Below the pieces are notes generated by a model. That model did not search any database. It was not told where the DNA came from and saw only the letters and a program-made list of their open reading frames with translations. The position numbers were made by a program, and so were the translations under genes. A stretch of DNA of 64,000 bases from the NCBI GenBank assembly GCA_964016885.1, contig OZ024740.1, positions 136,338,001-136,402,000 on the forward strand, in the 5' to 3' direction. Numbering within the stretch: the first letter of the stretch is position 1; the number at the start of each line of letters is the position of its first letter. Below are positions 26,458 through 64,000 of the stretch, piece after piece. The DNA is from Eledone cirrhosa (Eukaryota).

Positions 26458-26460
<3 letters not shown>

Positions 26461-31200: not shown

Positions 31201-32201
31201 TACAAATTTCAGAAGTCCCATTTACTGCTGAAATGGAAAACACAGAAAAAGCAAAGCAGGTAAAAGTAACTGCAAAGAAAGAACTGCTACAGAAACTGGC
31301 TAAGAAATGGCAAGAAAAGCCTCTGTATGGAAAATACCCAGAGCGAGCTAACAATCCTGATGTTGACAAAACTTTAACCCATCAGTGGTTGGCATCCTCT
31401 GGACTGAAATCGGAGACTGAAGGACTGATTATATCGGCACAAGATCAGTGTCTGCCAACAAAAAATTACCAAGCCAACATAATAAAAAATGGGTGCAGCC
31501 CATTATGCCGTGTATGCAAAAAACAACCAGAGACCATTGACCATATAATTTCAATGTGCAGTCCTATAGCTCCAACCGAATACCTAAACAGGCATGACAG
31601 AGCTGCACAATACATACATTGGATAATGTGTAAGCATTTTGACCTGCCCCATCAAAAGAATTGGTGGGAGCATCAACCACCTCCCATACTTGAAAAAGAT
31701 CACATCTCAATCTTGTGGAACAGACCGAAAAACAGATGCAAATAGACCTGATATAATATTGAAAGACTTTCAAAAGAGGGTATGCCTGCTAATTGATATG
31801 TCTGTTCCAATAGACAAGAATGTATCTATAAAAACATTTGAAAAATTGAGCAAGTATAAGGACCTGGAGATAGAAATTGGAAAAATGTGGAAATTGAGAA
31901 CTAAAACAATACCAGTGGTTGTAGGCGCTCTGGGAATGATACCTAAGGGGTCTAATGATTACTTATCGCAAATCCCAGGAAACCCGCGTATAGGAGAAAT
32001 ACAAAAGATAGTACTAATGGGAACTGCCCATATACTAAGGAAGATCCTGTCAATATAAGTACATCACAAGTCTAAACACTAAAGATGTATGTGTGAATAT
32101 GTATGTTCTTTCTTGAACATGGCGGACCTTGTTGTCTGTTGAGGTCACTGGTTGTGACTTGGTGATAACTCGTATGAACATAAAGCAAGATAAATGCAAC
32201 T

Positions 32202-32268
<67 letters not shown>
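28262..32268 (+). mobile_element. R4/Dong-like family B, full-length but with stops and frameshifts, (TAA)n tail
   Basis: ORF pieces 28424-29377, 29439-29873, 30018-30758 (GIFQGDSLSP, HLFYMDD), 30780-31745 (CRVC..H..C) and 31639-32058 (RLE). Confidence 0.92.
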
Positions 32269-33694: not shown

Positions 33695-36600
33695 TCTACA
33701 GCGTGATAATGCCACACAAAAATCACGTGGAGTGACAAAACCACCGGAGGCGATGAATTCACCGGTGGTTATGTAACCATACATTCGCCAATCCTCGATA
33801 AGAGTGTTTAAATGTTGAACCTAAACAGTTCGAATAACGGTGAAATGGAGACTAGAATGTCATGTTACAGACTCTCACCCAACAGGTGCTCCCTGGCTCA
33901 GCAGCAGGGACCTGGCTGTCAACCAAATACTGCTGGTGTCGGAGGAAGAAGAAGAAGGAAAGGGACCAGAACCAACTGGACGAAAGAATTGAATAGAACT
34001 GTTATGCAATGTTACCTGAAGAGTAACCCCAAGGAGAAAGGCTATAGGAAACGGATGCATAACATCTGGAATGAGATTGGTCTATTTAAATTAGATGAAC
34101 AAAAATTGGCCGGGCAGGCTCGGGTAATAAGAACTAATGGGTGGATAAGCGAACTGGAACTGGAGGAACTGGACAGAGAGATTAGCTTGGAGATGGAGAG
34201 TGGAGTATGCCAGGCAAACGAGCCAGTGGGAAATGAAGGTGAAGAGGTCGAGAGAACGGAGGAACCACCCGAAGCAGACAATGATCTGAATGCTGAGATA
34301 AATAATACCTGGAACAGAGATACGGCCACTGAGGAGATGAATGCTGACGGGCTAGGACAAGATTTGGTTGATATCCTAAACTTAGTGGTAGATGAATTGA
34401 ACAATGATAGTGGGAGACCTATGAACCTAAGATTTGTAGACAGGAAAAAGTTAAAAGAAACAACAGCTAAGGTAAACAAAGTCATCCCATACCTTGAGGC
34501 GAGGAGCCTTCACCAGTGCAACAATATCCTCAAAGCAACAGCAAATACGGTGAGGAAACTACTTGCTATAAAAGCGAGAGGAAACAACAGACAAGAAAGA
34601 GCAGAGCCTTGGTGAAAGAAACGACTGAGTGGTCAAATCAGGGAAATGAGAAATGACATTGGAAAGCTTGAGACCCTACTGAATGGGACACTAAAAAACA
34701 TAGACACTAAAAATAGACTGGAAATAAAGTACAAAACTAGGAGGAAAAAGCTAAATATTATCATAGAGGAACTGAAGCAACGCATTGTAGCAAAGAGTGC
34801 AAAAATCAGGCGATACGAGAACAGAGTCAGTCAGTATAGACAGAACCGCATGTTCGACAACAACCAGAAGATGCTGTTTGGACAGCTTGAAGGGAAAGAA
34901 AGAGGCAACGACTTGATCCCTGAGGCGGAACAAACTAAAACATTCTGGAGAGGAATATGGGAGCAGGATGTTAAACATAATGACCAGGCAGTGTGGATTG
35001 AGACAGTACAGAAGGAGATTAGTGAACAGGCACACCAACAAACTGATTTGAGTATCACAGTTGAAACTCTTAAGGGGCAGGCCAAAAAACTAACCAACTG
35101 GAAATCACCAAGCCCAGATGGTGTGCAGGGGTATTGGATTAAAAATATAACATCCCTCCACCCGAAACTGACAACCATGTTCAATGACTGCTTGATGTCA
35201 GGTGAGGTACCAGAGTGGTTGACAAAAGGTAGCACAGTTCTGATAATGAAAGACCGAAGCAAGGGTAATGATGTTACCAACTATAGACCTATCACATGAC
35301 TGTCTGTAATGTGGAAACTGTTGACAAGCATTATGTCTGAGGAAATCTACCATCACCTCCACACAAACAACTTGTTACCGGACGAACAGAAAGGATGTCG
35401 AAAGAAGTCACGTGGTACAAAGGACCAGTTACTTATTGATAAGATGGTAATGATGGAATTGCAAGACGAGACACACTGGTCTTGCCGTGGGATGGATAGA
35501 CTACAAAAAGGCATTTGACATGGTGCCTCATTCTTGGATCACCAAAAGCCTGGAGATCTTCAAGGTGGCAGATAACATCAGACAGTTGTTGAGCAAAAGT
35601 ATGAAGTCCTCGGAAACAGAGTTAACATCAACTGGAGAATCCTTGGGAAGCGTGAAGATCAAGAGAGGTATCTTCCAGAGAGATAGTCTGTCCCCTCTGT
35701 TGTTTGTCCTTGCCCTGATGCCCCTGACCAGTGTACTGCGAAAAGTGAGAGCAGGATACAGGTTGGGAAAGGGAGGGCTTACCATCAATCACCTCCTCTT
35801 CATGGACGATCTTAAGCTCTTCGGGAAGAGTGAGAAGGATTTGGATGTGCTTGTTGACACTGTCCATATTTTCAGCAGTGATGTATGTATGCAATTTGGT
35901 ATTAGTAAGTGTGGAGTCAGTGTGATGAAGAGGGGTAAATTGAGCAGAAGTAACGGAATCCAGGTACCAACAGGTGGGATGATAAAGGAAATTGACTCTG
36001 AAGAAGGATACAAGTATTTGGCTGTTCTGGAGGCAGATGACATCAAGAACAAAAAAATGAAGGAATTGATAAGAACTGAATACATTCGGAGAGTAAAGAG
36101 CGTATTAAAGTCACATCTGAACAGTAGAAATGCCATAAGTGCAGTAAATTCCCGAGCTGTGTCTATTATTAGGTACAGTGCGGGAATTCTGAGATGGAAT
36201 GTTGCTGAACAAAAAGAAATGGATAGGAAGACTAGGAAGCTATTGACTATCTACAACATGTTCCACAAGAGGAGTGATGTCGATAGACTCTACTTAAGGA
36301 GATCTGAAGGTGGAAGAGGTCTTATTAGCTTAGAGGACTGTGTTCAGATGGAGAAAAACAACCTACACAAATACGTGACTGATAGTAAGGAGCCAATGCT
36401 CAGAACTGTACTGAAGGAGAGGACAATAGATCAGGGGATGTCCAAGGAGGAAATAACATCAAGGAGAAAGAGCAGCCTTCAGGAAAAATCCCTTCATAGT
36501 ACCTTCTTTGAGAAAACTGAATTTAGAGATCCACAGACATGGAACTGGTTGAAAAGAGGAGACCTTAAAAAGGCTACAGAAGGAATGTTAATGGCTGCGC

Positions 36601-36905
36601 AGGAGCAGGCCCTCAAAACGAAGTGGTTGAAACACCATATTTACAAGGATGAGGCTAGCCCACTGTGCAGGATCTGTGGAGAGAGAGAGGAGACTGTGGC
36701 TCACATTGTATCCGAGTGTAAACACCTAGCCCAGACTCACTATAAGGGCTGGAGACATGATGTGATGGGCAAGGTGATCCAGCATGCTTGCTGGGAACAG
36801 CAAGAACCCTCCGATACGTCCTGAATATCTGAGGCTGCAGGTAATGGCTTGATATTCATTTCAACAAACTTTCCCGTTAACTAACATCAATGAATGAGAC
36901 TCAAG

Positions 36906-36980
<75 letters not shown>
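33695..36980 (+). mobile_element. R4/Dong-like family A, copy 2; stops, a frameshift and a ~450 bp deletion of the RLE
   Basis: Highly similar to 22760-26360. The junction ggtgatcca|gcatgcttgc near 36781 skips the endonuclease. Confidence 0.92.
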
Positions 36981-36981
<1 letters not shown>

Positions 36982-37510
36982 CAAGGGTTTACACAAAGTA
37001 GACATTAAGGAGAGTACAGGACAATACAGGACGGTACAAATGGGCATTTCTGCGTGTAAAAAAAAACAAAAAAAACAGAGGATGTAATAATAGAACAATG
37101 AAAAATTCCCCAATAGAGGGGAGACTTCCGAGGGCCATCGTGGAGAAAGCCCATTAAAAAATCCACGGTGACCCTGACCACCAGGGCAATTGTCCTCTCC
37201 CAGTTTTCCACCTTCAATTTACAGGCATATACTCAGAGTAGGTCCATTCACTCGGGCCATTCTTGCCTCTCTCACCCATCTTTCAACAAAAAGCTGGGAA
37301 GAGAGCACTTCCCTCTCCACCCTGATTTTCCTTGTCAAATGAAATTGGAAAAAGTTAATCAGGACGTCAACGAAGAGGTAAGTGCTCGTCTTCAGCCCTT
37401 TCAAACGTGTCCACCATACTATCTCTTTCGCCATGGCCACCAGACAGATAAAAACTGCCTGCCCTTCCCGGCTAAAGGAAGAGGGCGGGGCAATCCTCAC
37501 GATGGATTCA
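36981..37510 (-). mobile_element. Tx1-clade L1 3' fragment (ORF2 C-terminus and 3' UTR), tail-to-tail with A2
   Basis: MAKEIVWWTRLKGL..ERWVREARMARVNGPTL is homologous to the C-terminus of the 49320-52757 ORF2. Confidence 0.88.
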
Positions 37511-40113: not shown

Positions 40114-42712
40114 ATAATAATATATTTGAAGACTAAAATCCAAAGAGGGCTCGATAAAGATAAATATATATCAAATATATAAGAACCGTAGAGCAAATAT
40201 TTATTAAAATAACAGATTAAAGTTTAAGCAAAAAATCGCTGCTTTCACCCTTAACGGGATCTTCTGAAACTAACAAAGTCAATCTGTAAACGCAGAAGCG
40301 GATATTTCAAAAAACGTTGCAACCGGAGCAAGACAGGAAGACGATACTTTGGTTCGTGGAAACGTTCGCTATGCAAATAAGTAATGGTATAAACAAAACA
40401 TATACTTAACTCCCACATCAAGACGTAAAATATCCACGTATAGATCGTACTATCCGTTAGGGTATAACGTGGGGCTGTAATACAGGAAAGTTTTGTGCAA
40501 TTTATGTTTACAAGCCGAAATTGCCTCAGATTTTTTGTTTAAGATGTGGTCTGTGGCGTAGAGTATTTCCAGGGCCTCAGCGGCGCAGAAGTCACATGGT
40601 CTTTTATTTCCGTTATACGATCTAGCCCTAGCTAGGATCTCCCAGTGTAACTTAGATTGGGTGTGGTTGTCTTTTAGACTCCAGATATAAGCTGAAAGTG
40701 ACGTCATATTCCTTCTTAGAGGGTAACGAAAAGAATGGGTATGCATGTAAAGACGCTGCTTGAATCTATTGGCGGTTAACCCTATGTAGGCCCTACGGGA
40801 CGTGGGTGTTACAACCTTACATTTGTAGACAATGTTACTAGAGAGGCATTTCCCGGATAGGGGGCAATTAACCCGATTCCTACAATTACAGTTAGTACTA
40901 ACTACAGGGTTGCACGTGTACCTACGGCTAGGTAGTTTAGCTAAATTTGAAGCTGTGATGTTATGTGCAAGGTTAGGAGTCGTAGAGTAAGACATTTTAA
41001 TAGTATTTCTATTAAAAATTTTACTATATTTATGTGTAGGGGGAAATGCTTCGTAATAAGGGAAAGAAAGAACTTAGGTAATGGTGTGGCCACCTCCATA
41101 TTATATGGTGGGTTATACCAACAAATGCGACGGGATCTATTTCTTCTAGGTCTATTTTCGTACTCTGTATATGCTACCTTATCGACAAATCCACTTCGAG
41201 CAAGAGCTTCATTGTAATAAGTGGAATAGTCGTTGAAAATACGCTCGTTAGTGGAAAGACGGGAAAGCCTCAACGAAACGTTTTTTACCAGGTTCTTGGT
41301 TATGCTGGCAGGATGGTTGGAATGCTTACTTATATAATTAAGCGTATCATTCGGCTTTCTATACGGGTAATACAACCCCAATAAATTGAGGGTAACGTCG
41401 AGGTAATTAACGACCGAGAGATTGGCCTCAACCTGTATAGAGAGGTTGAAGTCTTTAAAGAAGGCTGTGAGTTCTTTTCTGAACCTGTCGCAAGCACGAG
41501 GTCCGCACTTAGTCATGGTCAAAAGACCATCGTCACGGTACAAACCACCGCCCGCGTGGGGAAATTCGTCCTTGATAGAGAAAAGAAGGAAAAGGCCGAT
41601 AAGATCAGTAACCTCCGCAGAATCACTGGCGCCCATACTCACGTCGAATGGGGTACTATTGGATTTTTTAATCCAAATAGAGTCGTCGAAATTAATCACC
41701 GACTTTCGGGCATTAAGGATGACATCAACTTCGAAATCCTTAACCACTGTGAGTGTTTTAGCGAAATTGATAGCTCTAAGGAGAAGTGGTAAAGTGATGG
41801 AGGAGTAGTAATTGTTGATGTCGAATTGGATAAAACGGCAATGTTCCTTGTTACATATGCCGTTGAACCAATCAATCACCGCGAAAGAATTGTTCCACAG
41901 TGCAAGAGGGGCCAAACTTCTAATTTCAGGTATAATTCTATCAAGAATCGTTTTACTAAGTCTACCTAAATCGGACTTCGTAGGATTAATAAGCCGAATA
42001 GAGGGGTTGTTCGGAAAATTGGATTTGTGATCCTTCAGGGTAAAGTGGGGAGAAATAGGGTCCAGAGGTTCGGTCCGGTCCAGGATGTTGAGATCGGATG
42101 TGATTTTAAACCCAGCATCGCTGATTTCATTGATGACGCACCGATTAGTTTTACGGTAATCCTTAGTTACAGCATTATGTAGTAGTTGATGGTAAGTACT
42201 GCGCTCCACTTGATATAGGTTTCCAGTTTTGTCGGAATGGACGTGCACGGCATTAGAATCCTTAATAGAACGAATTCTATTCTTCAGGTCCTGCTGGAAG
42301 GAATTGCTCCTATTCCGAAATTTGATACTCCGTATGAGTTCCAAGACATCATTTTCGAAGGGTAGCAATGCTGGGTTACACGGGAGGTTATTATAGGTTT
42401 TAAATCCAAATGTATCCTGTTTGTTGTCTGCTTTTCGCGGATTATCGAAATAAAAGGCACGCCAACGCAACCTTTTAATGAACGCGTCTGTTTTCAGTAT
42501 CAGGAGTTTTAGGTATGTGTTCCTGCTTGGTACGGGTATGTTCTTTGTAGAAATATTCAGATGTTGTTTCTGCATGATGAATATAAGTCAGTAGAGTGCT
42601 CAACCGAGGGAGCCAAATAGTAATAATAATAAATTTGAAGACTAAAATCCAAAGAGGGCTCGATAAGGATAAATATATATCAAATATATAAGAACCGTAG
42701 AGCAAATATTTA
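40108..42712 (-). mobile_element. Penelope-like element (Naiad-type), near complete, with ~95 bp direct terminal repeats
   Basis: RT 42575-40941 (DKT, RLINP, FDINNYY, MGASDS, YRDD, YLDVTL). One frameshift near 40990, then CNCRNRVNCPLSGKC, VYKC..YIG (GIY-YIG) and CDFC to 40450. Repeats at 40108-40204 and 42618-42712. Confidence 0.92.
40221..40271 (-). ncRNA. hammerhead-like motif in the PLE 3' pseudo-LTR (core CAGAAGA, U4>A variant)
   Basis: AGTTT-CAGAAGA-TCCC GTTAA GGGT-GAAAGCA..TGCTT|AAACT. Helices I, II and III all pair. Confidence 0.6.
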
Positions 42713-49030: not shown

Positions 49031-49319
49031 AGATAGATAGATAGATAGATAGATAAGTTTCTTTTATTTGCCACTAGGGCATCAAAAGTGGGACAAGTAC
49101 AAAGGGGGGAGTTTACACAAAAAGGCGTCCTCAATAAGGAGGAGGCAATAACAAAATATAAAAATAAAATAAGATATAACAAAAAATAAAATTTTTAACA
49201 AAATCCTCAATAGAGAGGAGGCGCCTTGGGGGGTCGCACACACCCCCGAAAAAAGTGTGCAACCCTTCTCCTCAGGAGCACAGAGAAGGGGTGCTCCCTT
49301 GGTCTTTCATCTTCCTCAC

Positions 49320-52300
49320 CTATAGTCTGATGTAGAGTGAAGGCCCATTCACACGGGCCATTCTCGCCACTTTCACCCATCTTTCATAGAAACGGCTGGG
49401 GTGCAGCACCTCTCTCTCCATCCTGATCCTTCTTCCGAAATGATATCGGAAGAAACGGACCAGTTGTTGGCCAGAGAGAAAGGTGCCCGACCTCAGTCCT
49501 TTCAGACGCGTCCACCATACAACCTCTTTCGCCATGGCTATTACGCACAGAAACACCGCCTCTGCTTCATCTTTGAAGGGGGGAGGCGGCTTGATCATTA
49601 CAATAGACTCGGTGGTCAACCGGATCGGTCCCACCCTTGACAGCAGTTGTTCGACATAGCCCCACAGATCGGCTACGCCCGAGCAGTGTACTAATGCGTG
49701 TGCAACGGTTTCCTCGTCGCACACGCATCTGGGACAGATCTTTTTGGCGGGGTCCCTACCCGGGCGCCCGTGTCTGTAGAGCCTTTCTCGAACGGGTAAA
49801 GCCCCTCGGTAGCACTGCCAGGCCAGGGACTTCTGGAAGTTGTCCATAGGTCCCGGGCTGAATGTCCTACTGAACAGGCTGGCCAGTTCGTCCTCCTCCA
49901 TGTCTAGGGCTTCTCCGAGGGCGTCGTCGCACCTGCTGCGTACCAGCCCTCTATAGAATGTTGCGGTGGAGTCTCCACTGATAACCGGATCCGCCTGCCA
50001 GAGGGCGGTGAGCGCCTGGGCACACTCAGTGTGCCAGGCGCCCAGTTTTCTCGGTCTTTGCTTGACCCAGGATTGCAGCTCGGTGAGTGAGACGAGTCTG
50101 GGAAAGGTTCGTCTCACAAACGAGGCCCACACCGGTTGTCCGGTGAGGAATACGTAGAGGTGCCGTAGCCTTAATGCGTGTTTACGCATCATTAGCCACG
50201 GCATCCCCAGCCCTCCTTTCGAAGGGTGTTGACAGCAGATGGATCTCCTCACCATAGGAGCCCGCCTCTTCCAAAGGAATTGGAAGAGCGCGCGCTCCAT
50301 CTTGGTGAGGGTTTCCCTTGGGCAGGGCACTACGGTCAGGCGGTAGTAGATGACGGACGCTATGTAGGTGTTCGCCACCTCCGCCCGACCTTTCAGGGAT
50401 AGTTTGCAACTGGCCCACTTCTGGGTCAGTGCAAACACCCTGTTCGTAACCTCCGCCCAGTTTTTCTCCACCTGGAGGTCCGGTCCGAACCAGACCCCGA
50501 GCAACTTCACCGGGCCCTCCGTCCAGCGTCCGACGACGCTATCGGAGGGCATCGGTCTGCCCCTCCACGTGCCGAGTTGCAAACCGATCGACTTGTCCCG
50601 GTTCAGCTTAGCCCCTGTGAACTTTTCGTACTCCTCCAGTAAGGTGCCGACCGCCTCGATTTCGGAGGCCGTCGACACCATTACTGTCACGTCATCGGCG
50701 TAGGCCGACACCGCTTTCCGCAATCCCGGTTCCAAAGGGATGCCCTGCAACAACTCCAACTTCCGCAGTAGTGGCTCGAGAGTCAACACATACAGAAGGG
50801 AGGAGAGAGGGCACCCTTGTCGGATGGACCGCGCGATTTTGAACGGCTCCGAGAGGTAGCCGTTCACCTTGACCCTAGAGCAGATGCGGCTGCTGTGCAT
50901 AGCAGTGATCCAGCCCCTGAAAACGGGTCCGAAGCCTGCCGCCGCTAGCACCGCATCCAGGTAACCATGGTCGACCCTATCGAACGCCTTAGATTGATCC
51001 AAGTTGATCAGAGCCCCACCAAAGCCGGGTTCGTTCCCAACCCTCTCTATGATGTATCGCATAAGGTGGAGGTTGTCATGGATGGACCTGGACGGGATAG
51101 CGCATGTCTGCGCATCTCCCACCAGGTTGCCCACGACAAGCGCCAACCTCTTTGCTAGCACCTTGGCCAAAATCTGTAACTCTGTATTTAGCAGTGTTAT
51201 GGGCCTGAAGTTACTTATTTCGTCCCCCTTGTTCTCGTCCTTCCTCACTAGCGTGACTACGCCCTTGGTCACAGTACAGGGAATTCTCCCGTTCTGTTGC
51301 CAGTTGCAGTAGACCGCCTCGAGGAGATCGGGGAACAAGTCCGGCATAGCTAGATATAATTCGTAAGGAAGACCATCGAGACCCGGGGATTTGCGTTTGC
51401 CGCATTGGCTCAGCACGTCCTCTATCTCAGCGGCCGAAATCGGCTCCTCGCAGGACTTCGCCTCCCTGTCCGAGAGGCGCGGCAGGCCGTCGAGGTATGG
51501 ACCGAAGTCCACGTTCCCAACCGGCTCCCCGCCCCTCCCGAACAGTCGGGCAAAGTGCCTTTGAAAGGCCTCACACATCTGCTTAGGCTCAAGAATCGCC
51601 CGTCCATCCAGGTCTCGCAAAGACCGGATGGTGGATTTAGTTCCACTGTTGGCCTCTGTCACGCGGGCCCAGCTAACAGCTTTGGTCCCCTCGTTCCCTA
51701 GAGCACGTATTTTACTTCGGACAACGCAGCCTTCGTGCTTCGCGTCGAAAAACTGGCTCAAAGCCGTTCTCGACGCTAGCACTCTGGCCACGTCGCCGCT
51801 TCTAATTGCCTCTTCTACTCTATCTATTAGCTCCCTTTCCTTCCTATTCCTATCCGCAGCTAGAACCTTACTAAATTCTATCGAGACTACTCTAATCTCT
51901 CTCTTTAGAGATACCCACCACCTGCTGTTGACGATCGCTCCAGTCAACCGTTCCTTAACTAACGTACTAATCCGATTCCTGTAGGCTCTACTTGCCGGCA
52001 AGGACAAGTTGAGCTTCCAGTAACCGGGGCCCTGTCTATGAGTTCTGTCAAGGTTGACCATGCAGGTCACTAATTTGTGGTCTGAATAGCCAACAATGCG
52101 CATTTTTGGACAACTTAAAAAGTCCTTATCCTTAATTCTAACTAAGAACCTATCTAGGTACGACCTAGATGATCCGCTACGATTTGCCCAAGTCCAGGTT
52201 GGCGCAGTCGGAAAATCTAGTCGATATCTATCGGCCAGGTCAAATCGACCGATTAACCCTTTGAGGCTATTACACCCCTCTCTATCGGGGCAGGCCCCTA

Positions 52301-52757
52301 CGTAGTCCCAGCGTGCATCTAGGATACCATTCCAGTCCCCCACTAATAGCAAGGAGCGGGACGTCCCTAGAAAAGTCTCCAGACGATGGAAGAAGTCCGG
52401 CCGCATTGACCCGAAAGGGCCGTAGGCGGCTACCAACCTAAACGCTCCGCCTTTACCACTGCCAAGGTCCAGAACCACTAGTCGACCCTCCGGGTCCAAA
52501 TGTACCATCTGTGTTGCGAGACCCAGATGTTTTTGCAGCAGAACGACAACTCCACCCCCACCTCCGGGCTGACAGAGAGATGCGTGCATCTCAAAGTCAT
52601 CAAAGGCGGGGGCCAGCTGTCGCACGTTGCTGATCCGGGCCTCGCAAATAACCATCACATCTATACGTTGTGACCTGAGGTCATTTAGAAGCATTGCTTG
52701 CTTCCAAGTTGAGCCCAGGCCACGCGCATTTAAACAGCCTACTCTTAGCATAGCCAT
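49320..52757 (-). CDS. Tx1/L1 ORF2: APE endonuclease, reverse transcriptase and C-terminal Cys/His finger
   Basis: LNARGL, GDWN, YLDR, SDH; KSPGLDGL, DQSKAFD, RQGCPLS, YADD; CPRC..H...C. Confidence 0.93.
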   Translation of the reverse strand: MAMLRVGCLNARGLGSTWKQAMLLNDLRSQRIDVMVICEARISNVRQLAPAFDDFEMHASLCQPGGGGGVVVLLQKHLGLATQMVHLDPEGRLVVLDLGSGKGGAFRLVAAYGPFGSMRPDFFHRLETFLGTSRSLLLVGDWNGILDARWDYVGACPDREGCNSLKGLIGRFDLADRYRLDFPTAPTWTWANRSGSSRSYLDRFLVRIKDKDFLSCPKMRIVGYSDHKLVTCMVNLDRTHRQGPGYWKLNLSLPASRAYRNRISTLVKERLTGAIVNSRWWVSLKREIRVVSIEFSKVLAADRNRKERELIDRVEEAIRSGDVARVLASRTALSQFFDAKHEGCVVRSKIRALGNEGTKAVSWARVTEANSGTKSTIRSLRDLDGRAILEPKQMCEAFQRHFARLFGRGGEPVGNVDFGPYLDGLPRLSDREAKSCEEPISAAEIEDVLSQCGKRKSPGLDGLPYELYLAMPDLFPDLLEAVYCNWQQNGRIPCTVTKGVVTLVRKDENKGDEISNFRPITLLNTELQILAKVLAKRLALVVGNLVGDAQTCAIPSRSIHDNLHLMRYIIERVGNEPGFGGALINLDQSKAFDRVDHGYLDAVLAAAGFGPVFRGWITAMHSSRICSRVKVNGYLSEPFKIARSIRQGCPLSSLLYVLTLEPLLRKLELLQGIPLEPGLRKAVSAYADDVTVMVSTASEIEAVGTLLEEYEKFTGAKLNRDKSIGLQLGTWRGRPMPSDSVVGRWTEGPVKLLGVWFGPDLQVEKNWAEVTNRVFALTQKWASCKLSLKGRAEVANTYIASVIYYRLTVVPCPRETLTKMERALFQFLWKRRAPMVRRSICCQHPSKGGLGMPWLMMRKHALRLRHLYVFLTGQPVWASFVRRTFPRLVSLTELQSWVKQRPRKLGAWHTECAQALTALWQADPVISGDSTATFYRGLVRSRCDDALGEALDMEEDELASLFSRTFSPGPMDNFQKSLAWQCYRGALPVRERLYRHGRPGRDPAKKICPRCVCDEETVAHALVHCSGVADLWGYVEQLLSRVGPIRLTTESIVMIKPPPPFKDEAEAVFLCVIAMAKEVVWWTRLKGLRSGTFLSGQQLVRFFRYHFGRRIRMEREVLHPSRFYERWVKVARMARVNGPSLYIRL

Positions 52758-52781
52758 GTTGGTGGTGAAGAGAAAAGGCAC

Positions 52782-54569
52782 TTACCTCTCTGCGTCCCGG
52801 GTATCGGGCTGCACAATTTCCATTAGGGTGGGGGATGGATTGTTGGGTGGGGTGGTGGTTTGTGGAAGTGTGGGGGCATCAGTGTGTTGTGTGGTTGGGG
52901 AGCTTGGAGTTGTGAGGGTGTTTGGGGAGGGGGTGGGATAGTTTTTTAGGAGGACGCGGTTAATGGGCCCGACGCAGGGGGGACCCACGTCCTCTTTAAA
53001 ATTGTTTTTTAAAGTTTTATAGGTGTCCTGTGGGGCCTTAATCATTTTGAGGTGGGGGAAATCCCCTGCCTGGGTGAAGTTAGGCCCTTGTGTTTTTATT
53101 AGATTGTTGTTGTACACAATGTTTAACAGTTTTTTGTTTCTTGTATTTATGTATGTGTATGCATGTTTTTGTTTTTGTGTGGTGTTTTTTGTTTGCTGTT
53201 GTGAGCTCTTTTGTGTTGGTGTCAGTGTTATGTTTTGGGGAGGGGTTTTTTTCATTTGTGTGTCTGAGGTGTGTTTTCTTTTTTTTCTTTTGATTGTGTG
53301 GAAGTGCTCCTCCTCGTCTGACGACGAACTAGGGTCATCTTCCGCGTTGGAGGGGAGGGGTATATTTTCGGGTTGTGTTTGCGGTACGGGTGTTTTGGAA
53401 ATTGTTTTTGTTTTTTGAGTGGAGGGGATGGGTTGGACATTGTTTTGTTTTGGTTTGAGCTGTGGTGGTTGTTTTTGTAGTGGTAGTTGTGGTGATTGTG
53501 TTGGTTGTGCAGTTGTTGGTGGTGTAGGCAGGATTGGGGTTTTCTTATTAAGTTGGGGACAGACAGCCCTCAGGTGACCTCTGGTTCCGCAGAGGTAACA
53601 CGAGGGCCGTCTACCCTCAACGGTAATGTTGATGAAGGTTAGATCATCCAGTATGACGCGTTCAGGGATCTGGGCGATCCTTTCGGGCCTCATTTGAACT
53701 ACAAGTTCGAGGCTCGTTCCACTGAACGCGTCACCCGATGCCTTTCCCATGGACACCAGCATGTCATCCTCCAGGTCCAGAAAACCTGTCAAAACCCACC
53801 ATATGTCCATAATCGGCAGGATGGTGTGGATTTTTATTTTTTGTGTTCTTCTACCCATGTACGTAGGGTAGAAGGTGTATGCGGTGGATGTGATTGGTTT
53901 GATGGACAGTTTCACTGCTGTGTCCCTGTCCTTCATGAGAATGGATAGACTCCCGTAGAGTCTATCCTTCTGAATGAAGGTGATGTCCTTCATGACGTCT
54001 TTTAAAACCAGCTCTATCTCGCTCTGTGATGGTTGAGCTGGTTTTTTACTTTTGTTCGAGATTGTCCTAAACATGACCGTGTTTAGGAGTCTCTGGCTTT
54101 TTAGTTCCGGGGGGGAATGGATTGTGAATGAACCATTTTCCCCGTACACTATATATTTTTTCGCATCCGCCAGTAGCTCCTTCGCTTTTGTTATATCTAC
54201 TGGCAGATAGTCGAGGGTTTTCCTTGTCGTCTCGGCGAAGGAGAAATTTTGTTTGTTTGTGTTGTTGTTGTCGTTGGTGGTGTTGTTGTTATCATTGTTG
54301 TTGTTGTCACCGTTATTGGTCTTGTTGTTATTATTGTTATTGTTATTGGTGTTGTTTTCGTCCGTCGCATTGTTGTTGTTGTTGCTGTTGCTGCTGGTTC
54401 TTTGGGTTGTTGCCATGGCAACGTCAAGTTGTCGGTTAACAGGTGGAGAGAATTCTTCCTCTGGCTGACCTTTCTTCTTGACCTCTGCTACTGTGACAGT
54501 GGCAGGGGGAAGCTGTAAGTTCATCTTCCCCTTTCCTCCTTCGAATTTTGGTGAAGAAGCTTCGGCCAT
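52782..54569 (-). CDS. Tx1/L1 ORF1: Asn-rich N-terminus, CCHC zinc knuckle, Pro/Gln/Thr-rich linker, basic patch
   Basis: 595 aa; CYLCGTRGHLRAVC; KRKKRKH. Homologous to the E2 ORF1 pieces. Confidence 0.88.
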   Translation of the reverse strand: MAEASSPKFEGGKGKMNLQLPPATVTVAEVKKKGQPEEEFSPPVNRQLDVAMATTQRTSSNSNNNNNATDENNTNNNNNNNNKTNNGDNNNNDNNNTTNDNNNTNKQNFSFAETTRKTLDYLPVDITKAKELLADAKKYIVYGENGSFTIHSPPELKSQRLLNTVMFRTISNKSKKPAQPSQSEIELVLKDVMKDITFIQKDRLYGSLSILMKDRDTAVKLSIKPITSTAYTFYPTYMGRRTQKIKIHTILPIMDIWWVLTGFLDLEDDMLVSMGKASGDAFSGTSLELVVQMRPERIAQIPERVILDDLTFINITVEGRRPSCYLCGTRGHLRAVCPQLNKKTPILPTPPTTAQPTQSPQLPLQKQPPQLKPKQNNVQPIPSTQKTKTISKTPVPQTQPENIPLPSNAEDDPSSSSDEEEHFHTIKRKKRKHTSDTQMKKTPPQNITLTPTQKSSQQQTKNTTQKQKHAYTYINTRNKKLLNIVYNNNLIKTQGPNFTQAGDFPHLKMIKAPQDTYKTLKNNFKEDVGPPCVGPINRVLLKNYPTPSPNTLTTPSSPTTQHTDAPTLPQTTTPPNNPSPTLMEIVQPDTRDAER

Positions 54570-54780
54570 TTAAAAAAATATTGACTTTTCAACAAGAAAA
54601 AACTTTTTTTTTGTTTAACTATTTCGCCTAAAGGCGTAAAATATTTTGAGAGACTGACCAGATCAAAGTTTGACCTGGCAGTCCCTCTACAAAATGGTAC
54701 AAAAATTAAAGTTATCAGACAAGAATTTCTATAGAAATTTAAACAGAACTTACTCAGCAAGTTATACGCGTGTGTCCATC

Positions 54781-54858
<78 letters not shown>

Positions 54859-54870
54859 GGATATAGATAG

Positions 54871-54960
<90 letters not shown>
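54781..54960. repeat. (AGAT)~45 microsatellite: tail of E1b, abutting the 5' end of E1
   Basis: Directly visible. Confidence 0.95.
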
Positions 54961-55335
54961 TTCTTTATTAGCCACAAGGGCGCACAAGAAAAGGGGACAA
55001 TACAAATACATGCCGGGGATTTAACATACAGTCATGTAAAAAATATAAAACAAACAATTATAACAATCGAAATCCCCAATAGGGGGGAAGCGCCACAAAT
55101 GCGTTGTTTAATATCCCGTCGATAGAAAAACCCTCAACTTCAGGAGCGTGTTGTGCAGGTGCTCCTTTCTTCCTTTTGCTCTCTTCTTTAACCTACAGGC
55201 TTACAAACAGAGAAGGCCCAATCACTCGGGCCATTTTTGCCACTTTCACCCACCTTTCAGTAAATTTACTGGGGTTCAGTGCCTCTCTCTCCACTCTGAT
55301 TCTCCTTCTAAAGTGATACTTAAAGAAGGGAATCA
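54961..55335 (-). mobile_element. Tx1 element E1b, heavily 5'-truncated
   Basis: FFKYHFRRRIRVEREAL..ERWVKVAKMARVIGPSLFVSL*, followed by the 3' UTR and AATAAAGAA. Confidence 0.88.
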
Positions 55336-55344
55336 AGATAAAAG

Positions 55345-58300
55345 ATAAATAGATAGATAGATAGATATGTTTCTTTATTAGCCACAGGGGCACAAAAGAA
55401 GGGGACAAATACAAAGGGGGAAGTTTACATACAATAACGTGTAAATTATTATCACAAATGTAATTTAAAAGTTAATCGATTTTCCCCAATAGGGAGAGAC
55501 ATTTCATATAGGTAACACATACCCCCGAAAAAAATGTGCAACCCTCACCTCCAGGAGTACGAAGAGTTTGTACCCCTTTCCTCTCTTCCTCCTTTTCCTC
55601 AACCTACAAGCTGATATAGAGAGAAGGCCCATTCACTCGGGCCATTCTCGCAACTTTCACCCACCTTTCATAAAACTTGCTGGGGTACAGCACCTCTCTC
55701 CCCATCCTGATTCTTCTTCGAAAGTGGTATTTGAAAAAAAGAACCTGTTGTTGGCCGGAGAGAAAGGTGTCTGACCTCAGCCCTTTTAAACTCGTCCACC
55801 ATACAACCTCTCCTTAGTTTTTGAAGGAGGGTGGCGGTTTGATTATGACAATGGACTCGGTGGTCAACTGCGGTCCCACCCGCGACAATAGTCGTTCTAC
55901 ATAGTCCCACAGGTCGGTAACGCCCGGGCAGTGTACAAATGAGTGCGCGACGGTTTACTCGTCGCGCACGCATCTCGGACAAATCTTTTTCGAAGGGTCC
56001 CTGCCCGGGCGCCCGTGTCTGTAGAGTTTGTCTCGAACTGGTAGAGCTCCACGGTAGCACTGCCAGGCCAGGGACTTTTGGAAGTTGTCCATCGGTCCCG
56101 GGCGGAAGGTTCTACCGAACAGACTAACCAGTTCGTCTTCCTCTACGCCCAGAGTTTCTCCGAGCGCGTCGTCGCACTTGCTGCGGACCAACGCTCTATA
56201 GAATGACGAAGTGGAGTCTCCACTGATCGCCGGGTCCACCTGCCAGAGGGCTGTGAGCGCCTCAGCACATTCGATGTGCCAGTCGCCCATTTTCCTCGGT
56301 CTTTGCATGACCCAGGACTGCAGCTCGGTCAGCGAGACGAGTCCTGGGAATGCTCGCCTCACGAACAGGGCCCACACCGGTTGTCCGGTGAGGAATACGT
56401 GGAGGTGCCGCAGCCTGAGCGCGTGTTTGCGCATCGTCAGCCACGGCATCCCCAGCCATCCATTTGAAGGGTGTTGGCAGCAGATGGATCTTCTCACCAA
56501 AAGAGCCCACTTCTTCCAAAGGAATTGGAAGAGCGCGCGCTCCATTTTGGTGAGCTTTTTGGCTGGACAAGGCACGACAGTCAAGCGGTAGTAGATGACG
56601 GACGCTATAAAAGTGTTCGCCACCTCCGCTCGACCTTTCGAGGATAGTTTGCACTCGGTCCACTTCTGGGTGAGTGCAAACACCTTGGCCGTCACCTCGT
56701 TCCAGTTCTTCTCCACCTGGAGGTCCGGACCAAACCGGACCCCGAGCAGCTTTACCGGTCCTTCCGTCCAGCGTCCGACGACGCCATCAGAAGGCATCGG
56801 TTTGCCTCTCCACGATCCGAGTTACAAACCGATGGACTTGTCCCGGTTCAGCTTCGCTCCTGTGAACCTTTCGTATTCCTTCAGTAAGGTGCCAACTTCC
56901 TCGATTTGTGAGGTGCTCGACACCATTACTGTCACGTCGTCGGCGTAGGTCGACGCCGCTTTCCGCAGTCTCGGTTCCAGAGGGATGCCCTGCAATAGCT
57001 CCAACTTCCGCAGTAGTGGCACGAGAGTCAGTACGTACAGAAGGGAGGAGAGAGGGCATCCCTATCGAATGGATCGCGTGATATGGAACGGCTCTGCGAG
57101 GTAGCCGTTCACCTTGACCCTTGAGCAGATGTTGCTATTGTGCATTGCAGCAATCCAGCCCGGAACACGGGTCCGAAGCCTGCCGCCTCGAGCACCGCAT
57201 CCAGGTAACGATGGTCAACCCTATCGAAAGCCTTTGACTGATCCAAGTTGATCAAGGTTAACACCCTACGCTCTCTATGATGTATCGCATGAGGTGGAGG
57301 TTGTCGTGTATGGACCTGGTCGGGATTGCGCATGCCTGCACTTCTCCCACCAGGTTCTCAACGACAAGCGCCAGCCTCTTTGCCAACACCTTGGCCAAAA
57401 TCTGTGACTCTGTGTTTAGCAGAGTTATGGGCCGGAAGTTGGCTATGTCATCCCCCTTATTCTCGTCCTTCCTGACTAGTGTGTCTACGCCCCTGGTCAC
57501 AGAACTGGGAATTCTCCCGTTCTGCTGCCAGTTGCAGTAGACCGCTTCCAGGAGACCGGAGAACAAGTCCGGCATGGCTACGTAAAATTCGTAGCGTAGA
57601 CCGTCGAGACCTGGAGATTTGCGTTTGCCACATTGGCTCAGCATGTCCCCTATCTCAGCGGCTGAAATAGGGTTTTCGCAGAACTTCGCCTCGCTGTCCA
57701 AGAGTCACGGTAGTCCGTCGAGGTATGGACCGAAATCCATAGCCCCTCCCGGCGCGCCGCCCTGCCCGAACAGTTGAGCAAAGTGCCGCTGAAAGGCCGC
57801 ACACATCTGCTTCGGCTCACGTATCACGCGTCCATCTTGGTCCTTCAAAGACCGAATCGTCGACTTGTTGCCACTTTTTGCCTCCGTCACTCGGGTCCAG
57901 CTAACAGCTTTGGCTCCCTCGTTTCCCAGAGCACGTATTTTGCTTCTGACAACGCCGCCCTCGTGCTTTGTGTCGAAGAACTGGTCCAAGGCCGTTCTCG
58001 TTGCTAGCACGCTGGCTACGTTGCCACTTCTAATTGCCTCTTCTACTTTATCTACCAGTTCCTTCTTGGTTCTATTTCTATCTAACGCTAATTCTTTACT
58101 AAAAACTAACGAGTCTAATCTAACTGCCCTCTTGAGAGGTACCACCATCTGTTGTTGACAATGGCCCCTGTGAAGTGCTGTTTAACTAAAGTGCTAATCC
58201 GTCTACTGTAGGCTTTGCATGTCGGTAACGACAAGTTCAGCTTCCAGTAGCCGGGTCCTTGTCTATGGATTCTATCAAGGTTGACCACGCAGGTCACTAG

Positions 58301-61230
58301 TTTGTGATCTGAATAGGCAACCATGAATATTTGTGGACAGCTTAACATGTCCCTATCCTTATTTCTAACTAGAACCCTATCTAGGTACGATATAGATGTT
58401 CCGCTGCGATTAGTCCACGTCCACAGTGGCACAGTCGGAAAATCTAGTCGATATCTATCGGCCAGGTCAAATCGGCCGATTAACTGTTTGAGGCTGTTAC
58501 ACCCCCCTTTATCGAGACGTGCTCCTACATAGTCCCAACGTGCATCTAGGATTCTATTCCAGTCCCCCACTAAAAGCAAGGAGCGGGACGTTCCCAGAAA
58601 AGTCTCTAAATGTTTGAAGAAGTCTGGCTGCCGTGTCCCGGATGGGGCATATGCGGCCACCAGCCTGAAGGCTCCACCTTTATTACCGTCAAAGTCTAGG
58701 ACCACCAGTTGACCCTCCGGGTCCAGATGTACCGTCTGTGTTACGACGTCCAGGTGTTTCCGCAGCAAAACGGCAACCCCGCCCCCACCTCCCGGCTGAC
58801 AGAGAGATGCGTAGATCTCAAAGTCATCGAAGATGGGGACCACATGTCGCTCGCTGTGGATCCTGGACTCGCAAATGGCTACCACATCCATACTGTGCGA
58901 CCTGGGGTCGTTTAAGAGTTTGACCTGTTTCCAGGGCATCCCCAGGCCGCGTACGTTCACACATCCAACTCTTATATTGGCCATGTTGGTGCTGAAAAGT
59001 TAAAAGCAGAGGAAAAGAAATCACTCACCCTTCGTCTCCTGGGGACCAGGGTGCACGATTTCCATGGGGATGTTGGAGGGGTTGTCTGAGTGGGTGGTGG
59101 TTTCCGGCGGGGTCGGAACGGAGATGTTTGGTGGGGAGGGGTGGTAGGGGGTGTCTGGGGTGGGGAGACATTTGAGAAGGACGCGGTTAAGTGGTTTCAC
59201 GCAGGAATTCCCCACATCCTTTTCAAATGTTTCTTTTAGGGACCTATAAATTTGTATAGGGACCCTAATCAGTTTTAGGTTCAGTTTTTTGTTATTTTTA
59301 ATAGAGTGGACGAAAGTTTTCCCTTCGGTTTTCACCGAAGGGTTGTTCGTGATGGTCCCCATTAATGTTTTGTTTTCAGTCTTTATGTATGTGTAAGTGT
59401 AATTTTCTTGTGTTGTGTTTGTTTTTGTCTGTAGTTCTTGTGTGTGCTTTCGTTTTGTTGTAGGTATTTTGTTTTCAGGAGGTGGGGGTTTTGTCTGTGA
59501 TGTTTTTGTTGTTTGTGTTGGTGGTTGTATGTTTGTGGTAGTGTTTGCTGTTTTTTTGTTTTTGTAGTGTCTTTTCTTTCTTTTCGGGCGATGGGGTTCT
59601 CCCTCGTCTTCACTGGGTGATGACGAGATAGCCTCATCTGTTGTATCGTCTGTGTGATTTGGGAGGGGGTATGTCTTGGGGAGCTGTTGTGTCTGTATCT
59701 GATTTTGCAGTGGTTTTAGGTGGAGTGAGTTGGGTGGGACTGTGTTTGCAGTTTGGTTTTTTTTGTTATTTTTGTGTGTTGTTGTTGTGGTGGTGGTGGT
59801 GGTGGTGGTGGTGGTGGTGGTGGTGGTGGTGGTGGTGGTGGTGGTGGTGGTTGTGTTGTTGTATTGGGTGTCGGCAGTAGTGCCTTTTTTTAATGCAGTT
59901 AATTGAGGACAGGAAGCCCTAAGGTGACCAATGCTTAAACACTGATAACAGGAAGGCCGCCTACCCTCAACAGAAATGTTTATGTAGGAATTTCCATCCA
60001 GAGGCACACGTTGTGGTATTCTAGCTATCCGTTCTGGTCTCATTTGGACCAGAACTTCTAAGCTTGTACCGTTGAATATGCCACTGGAGGACTTTCCCAC
60101 CGAAATTACTGTATCTTCATCAAAATTGATGAAACCAGCAGATGTTTACAAAATTTATGAAACCACCAGATGTTTACATTTGGTGTGATATTTGTTACTT
60201 TTATTTTTTTAGTCCTTTTTCCCATATATGTAGGGGAAAAGGTGTAGAGGGGGGACACAATTGGCGACACAGAATATTTATGTGCCGTCAATTGGTCTTT
60301 CATTATTATTGATAAACTTCCGAAGAGTTTTCCCTTCTGTATGAAGGTAATGTCCTTCATGGAGTTTCTTAGAACCAGCTCAATTTCGTTTTGAGTTAAT
60401 TGAGCTGGTTTTCTGGTGGTATTTGAGATTGTCCTAAAAACTATAGTTTTCAGGGCACACGTTAAGACGGGCGTTGCGGAAAGTGAAAGTAAATTTTTTG
60501 ACAACAATGTGAATTTGTTTGTTGTTTTTTTTACAATGAAAGTTACGATACACACGCAATTGTATGGATTTCTTAATATATATATATATGTGTGGGTGTG
60601 TATATGTGTGTATATATATGTGTCAGTATGTATATATATATGTGTGTTTGTATATATATATATGTGTTTGTGTCATCATCATCGTTTAACGTATATCTAA
60701 AGAAAAAATAATCACACACGCAATACTAATTAACACCATATCACTAAAGAGACCTGTTGTAAATAAACAAACAAATTCACAGTGTACACACATATATACA
60801 CACATATACACACCCACACATATATATATATTAAGAAATCCATACAATTGCGTGCGTATCGTAACTTTCACGGTAAAAAAAAAACAAAAACAAATTCACA
60901 TTGTTGTCAAAAAATTTACTTTCACTTTCCGCAACGCCCGTCTTAACGTATGCCGTTTTCAGGACAGTGTCTCTACGCAATTCTTGGGGAGAAGTGATGC
61001 TAAAAGCGCCATTCTCCCCAACAGTTATATATTGCTTGGCATCTCTTAGCAATTATCCGGCATTAGAGATGTCAATCTGTGTATATAGTTCTGTCTTTTG
61101 GACAGTTTGTGCAAACGAAACTTTTTTTTCCTTGTTTGTGGAGTTGTTCTTGTTGGTGTTGTCATTACTGTTGCTGCTGTTGGTGTTGTTGTCATCATGT
61201 TTGCTGTTGTTGTTGTTGTCATTGTTGTCG

Positions 61231-61302
<72 letters not shown>

Positions 61303-61698
61303 TTGTAGTTCTCAATTGCTTGATTTGTGGTTGTGGAATTCATTTGTGAAGTTGTGTTTTTCACTTGTTAAATATTATTTTGTGCCGTATGTGTTTCCAT
61401 ACTTTTGTTTTGGTGTGATTTATCTCGGTCACTACCTGTTGCCATAGTGACATTCATTTCAACGCTCCCATTTCCATTTTTGGCGGGAAGCGTTTTAATG
61501 TTGACATTCATAGTTAAACAAGTTGTTATAAATTTTTATATGAACATTTTTATGAAAATTTCAATGACTCACCCACTGACAGAGGGTCAATCTATATAGT
61601 GGTATATTTTTTTAAAGCAATAATTTTTTTTTTTTATAAATAAAAGACAAAAACTTACCAGCGTGACTGGCACACAACTTCCTCTATTTCAGACAGAA
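55345..61698 (-). mobile_element. Tx1 element E2, full length, decayed; ORF1 interrupted by a MITE
   Basis: ORF1 pieces ~61511-59021 (CYQCLSIGHLRASC). ORF2 from ATG 58984 to TAG 55604 with frameshifts (GDWN, SDH, YADD). Confidence 0.92.
60454..60954. mobile_element. MITE with ~160 bp TIRs and an 8 bp TSD (Merlin-like)
   Basis: TIRs GGCACACGTTAAGACGGGCGTTGCGG.. and ..CCGCAACGCCCGTCTTAACGTATGCC. TSD GTTTTCAG at 60446-60453 and 60955-60962. Excision restores ORF1 DTVLKTIVFRTIS. Confidence 0.88.
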
Positions 61699-64000
61699 GA
61701 TAGATATGTTTCTTTATTAACCACAGGGGCACAAAATAGATATTTCTTTTTATTAGCCACAGGAGCACAAAAGAAAGGGACAAATACAAAGAGGGAAGTT
61801 TACATACAATAAAAACATGTAAAATATTATCACAAATACAATTTAAAAGTTAATCGATTTTCCCCAATAGGGGGAGACATTACATATGGGTAACACATAC
61901 CCCCGAAAAAAATGTGCAACACTCATCTCCAGGAGTACGAAGAGTTTGTACCCTTTCCTCTCCTCCTCTTTTTCCTCAACCTACAGGCTGATATAGAGAG
62001 TAGGCCCATTCACTCGGGCCATTCTCGCCACTTTCACCCACCTTTCATAAAACTTGCTGGGGTACAGCACCTCTCTCTCCATCCTGATTCTTCTTCCAAA
62101 GTGGTATTTGAAAAAAAGAATCAGTTGTTGGCCGGAGAGAAAGGTGTCTAACCTCAGCCCTTTCAACCTTGTCCACCATACAACCTCTTTCGCCATAGCT
62201 ATCATACAAAGGAAAACCGCCTCTCCTTCGTGTTTGAATGAGGGTGGCGGTTTGATCATGACAATGAACTCGGTGGTCAACCGGATTGGTCCCACCCGCG
62301 ACAATAGTCGTTCTACATAGCCCCACAGGTCGGGAACGCCCAGGCAGTGTATGAATGCGTGCGCGACGGCCTCTTCGTCTCGCACGCACCTCGGATAGAT
62401 CTTTTTCGGGATGCCGTGGCTGACGATCGTAAACACGCGCTCAGGTTCGGCATCTCTACGTATTCCTCACCGCACAACCGGTGTGGGCCCCGTTCGTGAG
62501 GCGAGCATTCCCAGGACTCGTTTCGCTGACCGAGCCGCAGTCCTGAGTCAAGCAAAGACCGAGGAATATGGGCGACTGGCCGGGCGCCCATGTCTGTAGA
62601 GCTTGTCTCGAACTGGTAGAGCTCCTCGGAAGCACTGCCAGGCCAGGGACTTTTGGAAGTTGTCCATCGGTCCCGGGCGGAAGGTCCTACCGAACAGACT
62701 GGCCAGTTCGTCTTCCTATACACCTAGAGTTTCTCCGAGCGCATCGTCGCACTTGCTGCGGATCAACCCTCTATAGAATGACGAAGTGGAGTCTCCACTG
62801 ATCGCCGGGTCCGCCTGCCAGAGAGCTGTGACCGCCTGAGCACACTCGATGTGCCAGTCGCCCATATTCCTCGGTCTTTGTTTGACTCAGGACTGCGGCT
62901 CGGTCAGCGAGACGAGTCGTGGGAATGCTCGCCTCACGAACGGGGCTCCGCCGGTTGTCCGGTGAGGAATACATAGAGATGCCGAAGCCTGAGCGCGTGT
63001 TTGCGATCGTCAGCCACGGCATCGCCAGCCCTCCGTTGGAAGGGTGTTGGCAGCAGATGGATCTTCTCACCAAAGGAGCCCGCCTCCTCCAAAAAAATTG
63101 GAAGAGCGCGCGCTCCATTTTGGTGAGCGTTTTGGCTGGACAAGGAACGAGGTCAAGCGGTAGTAGATGGCGGACGCTATAAAAGTGTTCGCCACCTCCG
63201 CTCGACCTTCGCAAACACCTTGGCCGTCACCTCGTTCCAGTTTTTCTCCACCTGGAGGTCCAGACCAAACCAGACCCCGAGCAGCTTTACCTGTCCTTCC
63301 GTCCAGCGTCCGACGACGCCATCAGAAGGCATCGGTTTGCCTCTCCACGATCCGAGTTGCAAACCGATGGATTTGTCCCGGTTCAGCTTCGTTCCTGTGA
63401 ACCTTTCATATTCCTTCAGTAAGGTGCCGACTTCCTCGATTTGCGAGGCGCTCGACACCATTACTGTCACGTCGTCGGCGTAGGTCGACGCCGCTTTCCG
63501 CAGTCCCGGTTCCAGAGGGATGCCCTGCAATAGATCCAACTTCCGCAGTAGTGGCTCGAGAGTCAGTACGTACAGAAGGGAGGAGAGAGGGCATCCCTGT
63601 CGAATGGACCGCGTGATATAGAACAGCTCCGAGAGGTAGCCGTTCACCTTGACCCTTGAGCAGATGCATTGCAGCCATCCAGCCCCTGAACACGGGTACG
63701 AAGCCTGCAGCCTCGAGCACTGCATCCAGGTAACGATGGTCAACCCTATCGAAAGCCTTAGACTGATCCAAGTTGATCAGGGCCCCACCGAAGCCGGGTT
63801 TACACCCTACCCTCTCTATGATGTATCGCATGAGGTGGAGGTTGTCGTGTATGGACCTGGTCGGGATTGCGTATGTCTGCACTTCTCTCACCAGGTTCTC
63901 AACGACAAGCGCCAGCTTCTTTGCCAACACCTTAGCCAAAATCTGTGACTCTGTGTTTAGCAGAGTTATGGGCCGGAAGTTGGCTATGTCATCCCCCTTA
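61699..64000 (-). mobile_element. Tx1 element E3 (RT and 3' end; continues beyond window), decayed
   Basis: DQSKAFD, RQGCPLS, YADD. ORF2 stop at 61981. Close relative of E2, with a duplicated 3' terminus at 61699-61775. Confidence 0.9.

Follow-up and report, generated by a model that had tools for sequence, protein, structure and literature searches.

We analysed a 64,000-nucleotide (nt) window of the Eledone cirrhosa genome (contig OZ024740.1, positions 136,338,001 to 136,402,000; coordinates below are those of the window) that carries several Tx1-type long interspersed nuclear elements (LINEs), among them the intact element E1. Comparison of lineages strongly supports a U1-type splice donor at the end of the first open reading frame (ORF1) of these elements, conserved far beyond chance, and the sequences around the start and the end of ORF2 are complementary and covary. 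The sequence evidence for an RNA control element is strong, and splicing would be the likeliest use of the donor. LINEs require far more ORF1 protein (ORF1p) than ORF2 protein (ORF2p), and to our knowledge the way in which they set this ratio is known for only a few elements. We favour, with a probability of about 0.55, a mechanism in which splicing would yield an ORF1-only mRNA, the outcome being locked by the duplex between the two ORF2 ends, and in which RNA zipped up by this duplex would be kept at full length. We hold more tentatively, at slightly under an even chance, that the whole of ORF2 is a self-masking intron. One covarying duplex would then cover the 5' splice site, the AUG and the 3' splice site, a single fold would decide whether the RNA becomes an ORF1-only mRNA or stays competent for transposition, and an acceptor would be rebuilt downstream in lineages that lose the TAG at the ORF2 end.

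E1 is a full-length Tx1-type LINE on the minus strand (49056..54780), lying between (TATC)n arrays. Its ORF1 (52782..54569) encodes 595 aa with a CCHC knuckle and ends with the codons AGG TAA; its ORF2 (49320..52757) encodes 1,145 aa with an APE endonuclease, a reverse transcriptase (RT) and a zf-RVT domain (Pfam matches RVT_1, 5e-26; Exo_endo_phos, 3e-8; zf-RVT, 4e-5). The zf-CCHC match of ORF1 (E=0.051) fell under the cut-off, and the CCHC residues were invariant in all eight ORF1s compared. The donor consensus GAG/GTAAGT (52780..52788; the slash marks the putative exon boundary) overlies the ORF1 stop and is the top U1 match among 265 GT sites. The inter-ORF spacer (52758..52779) is pyrimidine-rich, with ACCAAC at its end, followed by the ORF2 ATG. 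The candidate acceptor (49316..49344) consists of a pyrimidine tract, a CAG at -7, TAG/G and a TGA that would terminate spliced ORF1. The putative intron (52785-49320) would span ORF2, the 3' untranslated region (UTR) up to AATAAA (49063..49319) would be exon 2, and the predicted product of splicing would be an intact or nearly intact ORF1 protein. The original prediction had drawn attention to GAG AG/GTAAGT at 52785 and CTATAG/G TGA at 49320 in E1, to AAG G/GTGAGT at 59028 and TTGTAG/GT TGA at 55604 in the divergent copy E2, and to TAG GT TGA at 61981 and TAG GT TAA at 55193 in the partial copies E3 and E1b. All of these motifs stand in the sequence as described.

The clade to which E1 belongs is large and young. 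A search of the 3.0-Gb genome of the same species returned 15,209 matches to its RT motif and 14,495 to its endonuclease motif, a 601-nt segment of E1 was found in at least 40 copies at 100% identity, and a 21-mer across the E1 ORF1 end and donor had 1,440 exact copies, all of them unspliced junctions. The features of the Tx1/L1 group were found, namely an ORF2 with APE endonuclease, RT and C-terminal zinc domain and a separate ORF1 with a CCHC knuckle, as was an association with microsatellites in the form of (TATC)n flanks within the window and TATC or ATT tails depending on the lineage. Tails of (TATC)n marked the E1/E2/G/H group, and tails of (ATT)n lineages D and B. The nearest named homolog was from Argonauta, at 62%. 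We provisionally place the clade in Tx1 on its architecture and its microsatellite ends. Copies also occurred in tandem arrays, for example six at ~5.9-kb spacing near G000:C1:4.22-4.26 Mb. Our sample comprised 100 chosen genome stretches together with the loci returned by searches, was mostly from a single contig (C1) and was non-random. From the first 80 stretches and the search loci we obtained 72 copies with both ORF2 ends; one more, whose end could not be anchored, was dropped. Twenty lineage representatives were hand-picked from clusters, among which ORF2 DNA identity went down to ~0.67, and lineage K was added later as the 21st, when a search for a more distant lineage in the same genome returned only this clade. 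The lineages are related through a single shared ancestor, and lineage counts are therefore not independent events.

A GTRRGT motif was present 12-62 nt upstream of the ORF2 start in 68 of the 72 two-ended copies, compared with GGTRRGT in 29 of 2,099 other 50-nt windows. The four misses were one mis-anchored copy that nevertheless carries the donor, two copies without the junction sequence and one GT>AT change. G/GTRRGT was found at the ORF1 end in 20/20 lineages, with -1G, +1G, +2T, +5G and +6T invariant in all 20, -2A in 19, and variable flanks; the sites were picked by motif, and the informative point is that every lineage has one at that place. The 21st lineage, K, has CAG/GTAATT, in which +5G is replaced by T and the exonic CAG is perfect. 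Compensation of a lost +5G by a perfect exonic part is typical splice-site behaviour. The original prediction had asked for conservation of the donor across subfamilies, and these related lineages show it. The donor was the unique best U1 match among the ~270 GT sites per element in 15 of the 20 lineages, and one or two sites equalled or beat it in the other five. Its phase was 2 in 13 lineages, 1 in six and 0 in one, in which ORF1 continues for 12 codons beyond the donor. Because it is retained in all three phases, the donor is not a matter of stop-codon context. The spacer that follows was 71-81% pyrimidine in 20/20 lineages.

In 18/20 lineages, none of ~470 windows paired better with the 80 nt at the ORF2 start than the 80 nt around the ORF2 stop; at this window size A and J were the exceptions, and in K the ORF2-end window was the best partner among ~220 windows in 3/3 copies. 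For E1, arm 1 (52730..52800, covering the ORF1 end, donor, spacer and ORF2 start) and arm 2 (49272..49352, covering the ORF2 end, its stop and nt 1-48 of the 3'UTR) are predicted to pair at -60.1 kcal/mol, and the region 49060-49360 had a folding z of -3.2. The corresponding arms of E2 (58955..59043 and 55550..55636, the latter containing TAG/GT TGA) gave -78.0 kcal/mol. Across ten separated lineages, own-arm pairs averaged -60 kcal/mol versus -47 for cross pairs, which 0 of 100,000 permutations reached with relatedness uncorrected; the own arm was the best arm in only 9/20 rows. When the register was fixed, 234 of 320 positions paired, compared with 86-118 when it was slid, and the duplex was more stable on the sense than on the antisense strand in 18/20 lineages. 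The predicted helix is 49-70 bp long and covers 5-8 of the nine donor bases, 1-3 of the three AUG bases and 10-17 of the 20 tract bases. Opposite the G of TAG, +1G and +2T stand C-4, C-5 and R-6, counted back from the AUG, and D1, D3 and B show compensatory changes. In A, E2b, E1b, B and F, the UTR segments complementary to the donor change with its type; elsewhere they do so partially. Collectively, these comparisons indicate that the arms are complementary and covary across lineages, and the duplex, which the original prediction did not include, is predicted to bury the donor, the AUG and the acceptor.

It is very improbable, in our view, that these motifs have no function in RNA and were inherited as side effects of codon use, of stop context and of an inverted repeat made by template switching. 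The single common ancestor of all lineages, which deprives the counts of independence, speaks for such an origin, as does the absence of the layout from distant L1/Tx1 elements of metagenomes. Against it, the donor persists through phase shifts and through spacers of 25-56 nt, and the arms covary, include G-U pairs and are biased towards the sense strand. In the metagenomes, a scan with E1 ORF2 as the sole query gave no matches, and a scan with an alignment gave 80 loci, 58 of them with a long ORF. Among these 58, GTRRGT lay within 90 nt of the first ATG in four, roughly what chance would give by our own estimate, and TAG/GT stood at the ORF2 end in one. In three metagenome contigs (L111, L115 and L153) a motif resembling the donor lay no more than 25 nt from the ORF1 stop, too small a number to set against chance. 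A homolog search with ORF1 found no homologs; a profile search yielded octopod ORF1s that lack DNA context, and two of these terminate in GK or GKS, as a phase-1 donor would allow, though this is no test of one.

At the other end of ORF2, the stop was TAG in 19/20 lineages, followed by +1G in 18 and +2T in 18. Using an ad hoc acceptor score of our own making, the AG of this stop ranked first of ~260 AGs in 8/19 lineages and within the top three in 13/19. Lineages B and K end ORF2 with TAA and have no TAG. In these, a U-rich tract and a CAG were found ~158 nt into the UTR in 11/12 rows; in B this CAG was the best-scoring AG, 73 nt upstream of AATAAA and with an in-frame stop 58 nt on. The sister lineage F, which keeps the TAG, has an A-rich stretch and CAC at the homologous place in 9/13 rows (the motif was not found in five rows overall, and two F rows overlap and are probably one element), and in nine other TAG lineages with the homologous motif an AG followed it directly in 0/9. 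This suggests that lineages losing the TAG may need an acceptor downstream. In E1, C and A, a second tract and TAG lie directly before AATAAA (49068-49075 in E1); the top-scoring AG is there, and it is not conserved. Taken together, use of the ORF2 stop as an acceptor is plausible, confounded by the duplex. Of the TAG/G-stop originally predicted at the ORF2 end, the TAG and the +1G recur in most lineages; the same letters are also duplex partners, and B and K have TAA.

The original prediction had further proposed that the phase of the donor and the distance from the acceptor to the next stop compensate exactly. With the TAG as acceptor, a stop follows within 9 nt in 13/19 lineages, compared with 9.3 for shuffled phases (P 0.047, no tree correction). 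Among the first 100 of the 1,775 E1b/E2-type junctions returned by a genome search, 90 were of the phase-2 form and 10 of the E2 form, and GT TRA follows the TAG in the E1b family and in several relatives of E2. Since the E1b-type donor is in phase 2, TAG/GT TAA yields no immediate stop there, and E1b, originally cited in support of the layout, speaks against it. The shift in the donor and that in the stop fell on different branches of the tree. Using the AG at -7 instead would mend four of the six failures, but every AGN codon in ORF2 falls in phase 2 by construction. We rejected exact phase compensation as strong evidence.

We also considered a mini-intron of 35-60 nt that would use the spacer tract and fuse ORF1 to ORF2 in frame. 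The spacer tract is a better pyrimidine tract than that at the ORF2 end, and in 11/20 lineages the next AG downstream keeps the phase of ORF2. It is out of phase in the other 9/20, including all six phase-1 lineages and the phase-0 lineage, and in K as well if homology is used to set the ORF1 frame; most of the in-phase AGs are the weak AAG of an Arg codon, and the spacer tract is paired within the duplex. We rejected this fusion on the 9/20 out-of-phase lineages and regard it as highly unlikely.

Several observations weigh against splicing from the ORF1-end donor to the ORF2 stop. No spliced RNA was observed, and a completely closed duplex would prevent splicing, so that the share of RNA that is spliced could be close to zero. 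The E1 acceptor ranked only 6th of 266 AGs and that of F 25th by the ad hoc score, inspection by eye upstream of the AG revealed no convincing branch point and no conserved YTNAY, and four-fold sites at the ORF2 end were not exceptional, 25% of windows being equally high. Phase matching fails in 6/19 lineages, the abundant E1b family included, with 22-235 nt of UTR read-through. The gain of an acceptor in B and K is a single event, noticed post hoc. The predicted duplex pairs the acceptor-like letters, the pyrimidine tract and also the purine-rich UTR, with the G of TAG opposite C-4 in 19/20 lineages and +1G opposite C-5 in 18/20; because these letters pair, the acceptor look and the nearby TRR stops are largely explained. 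No processed spliced copy was found in five exact-motif genome searches (E1, E1b/E2-type, A, and B twice); the original prediction had suggested a search for ORF1+3'UTR-only copies. A gapped pattern did return matches, namely the 1,775 E1b/E2-type junctions, and zero processed copies against 1,440 unspliced E1 junctions weighs modestly against abundant splicing. L1 proteins favour their own RNA in cis, as described in the available part of PMC5860796, and an RNA lacking ORF2 should therefore rarely be copied, which softens this counter-evidence and does not remove it. No ORF1-to-UTR joint was among the 15 of 239 joints listed for contigs X4, X1, X5 and X6 on E1, no run being on record as RNA, and this comparison is uninformative. 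In X4, contig depth was higher over ORF1 than over ORF2, a difference to which we give no weight, as contig depth cannot rank the parts of an element and the type of the run is not recorded.

Many of these observations would also fit a U1 that binds the donor without splicing, a reading that we consider unlikely, if well ahead of the by-product and mini-intron explanations. U1 would protect or process the nascent RNA by suppressing premature polyadenylation, or the site would act as a decoy donor. The duplex would then release U1, put the poly(A) end beside the ORF1 stop against decay and restrain ORF2 translation, and the acceptor look would be a by-product of pairing. The duplex does account for TAG/GT, the tract and the nearby TRR stops, B and K keep donor and duplex without the TAG, and the five exact searches gave no processed copies. 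AWTAAA occurs within ~350 nt upstream of the donor in 17/20 lineages, which is expected anyway because ORF1 is A-rich, and there are only 0-2 AWTAAA sites in ORF2 to suppress. Precedents, as far as the available parts of the papers go, are the decoy donor of the NRS (a negative splicing regulator) and the CU-rich RNA stability element (RSE) after the gag stop in Rous sarcoma virus (RSV; PMC9143442), a fold-back that suppresses nonsense-mediated decay (PMC2689704) and U1 anti-termination in EVD (PMC5580714). Against U1 binding alone, it would be costly to keep a strong donor that lies 3.4 kb upstream of the best acceptor in the element and is never used, and pairing by itself would neither rank the ORF2-stop AG at the top nor place a strong acceptor in B and K. 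Nor does the duplex explain why the donor stays at the U1 consensus, because any sequence could pair. To other uses of donor and duplex we leave a very small residual chance.

In the splicing mechanism that we favour, U1 would load on the ORF1-end donor while ORF2 is being transcribed. As the ORF2 end and the 3'UTR emerge, spliceosome assembly would compete with closure of the duplex. The spliced RNA would be the source of excess ORF1p, with its C-terminus intact or nearly so, and the zipped RNA would escape splicing, yield little ORF2p because its AUG is paired, and be the form copied in cis. The acceptor would likely be the ORF2 TAG in most lineages and the CAG 158 nt into the UTR in B and K. 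As for the original proposal that ORF2 is a GT-AG intron, its donor is strongly supported and its AG is top-ranking, while the look of its acceptor is partly that of the duplex and its phase matching is weak.

Two lineages depart from the common arrangement. Lineage K (L231-L233, L236 and L249) combines a distinct ORF1 end and a 52-56 nt spacer with a B-type 3' end and retains the duplex; it is likely a recombinant. In lineage H (L207, L195 and L079), ORF2 is open for 1,145-1,146 codons, begins with ATA and overlaps the ORF1 stop (AAA TAG). Its first ATG is at codon 35 or later, within the endonuclease, and this is common to 9/9 two-ended copies, which suggests non-AUG initiation.

The other copies of the clade in the window are also on the minus strand. 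E2 is a degenerate full-length copy of a phase-1-donor lineage (55375..61695, ends approximate) with a broken ORF2 (58984-55604) and the donor AGG/GTGAGT (59023..59031); its donor/acceptor pair was identical in six other copies. Its ORF1 contains a 501-bp miniature inverted-repeat transposable element (60454-60954), presumably hAT-like, whose inverted ends are 79 nt long (95%) and which has a direct repeat of 8 bp. E1b is a 5'-truncated 3' end (54961..55384) of a family with a phase-2 donor, E3 is a rearranged 3' part of ORF2 plus UTR (61700..64000), with a broken ORF2, that continues beyond the window edge, and a further 5'-truncated 3' fragment lies at 37228-37509. Elsewhere, three plus-strand RT elements with (AAT)n ends (22877-27260, 28424-32268 and 33812-36980), the first with an open 1,070-aa ORF containing RVT_1, are assumed to be Dong/R4-like. 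ORFs at 40941-42587 and 21106-21609 are Penelope-like by eye, the former without a Pfam match.

In the open-access PMC and bioRxiv literature, supplements aside, we found no publication on this layout. Kibi, Koshi and crocodilian Tx1 are Tx1-clade LINEs that target microsatellites (PMC4494074), and these and the Octopus vulgaris L1-Tx1 (PMC13282606) resemble the E1 clade in having two ORFs, an APE-RT ORF2 and microsatellite ends. They differ in that the available text describes no splice signal or long-range pairing for them, and "splic" and "intron" do not occur in the main text of PMC13282606. The closest functional model is the 2-kb gag RNA of Drosophila copia (bioRxiv 10.1101/2025.09.17.676627), in which splicing removes most of the enzyme region and leaves an mRNA for the structural protein. 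Copia is a long terminal repeat element with one ORF and its splicing is demonstrated, whereas the E1 clade consists of bicistronic LINEs with sites on both stop codons, a predicted masking duplex and putative splicing. In the plant Ty1/Copia shGAG system of EVD, a conserved U1 site sets the structural-to-catalytic ratio and blocks premature termination; according to the portion of PMC5580714 at hand, EVD differs in using a short intron and premature polyadenylation, so that the enzyme ORF is not wholly removed. Human L1 spliced integrated retrotransposed elements (SpIREs) also come from a LINE with functional donor and acceptor sites. Their splices, in the available text of PMC5860796, lie in the 5'UTR and ORF1, keep ORF2, are called dead ends and left processed copies, of which we found none here. 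RSV NRS/RSE has a decoy U1 site and a CU-rich tract directly after the stop of a structural gene in an unspliced retroelement RNA, a layout comparable to that of the E1 clade. It differs in being retroviral, and no duplex linking both ends of the enzyme gene is described in the parts of PMC9143442 at hand.

If our reading is correct, LINEs would have, in a spliced mRNA for ORF1 only, their equivalent of copia gag splicing, and a LINE RNA could be organised around an intron whose retention is essential. Should splicing be rare, the covarying duplex, with 3.4 kb looped out and both a U1 site and the start of ORF2 covered, would still be a defined element of RNA control. With hundreds to more than 1,000 near-identical copies per lineage, the clade is very active and thus bears on LINE activity in cephalopod genomes.

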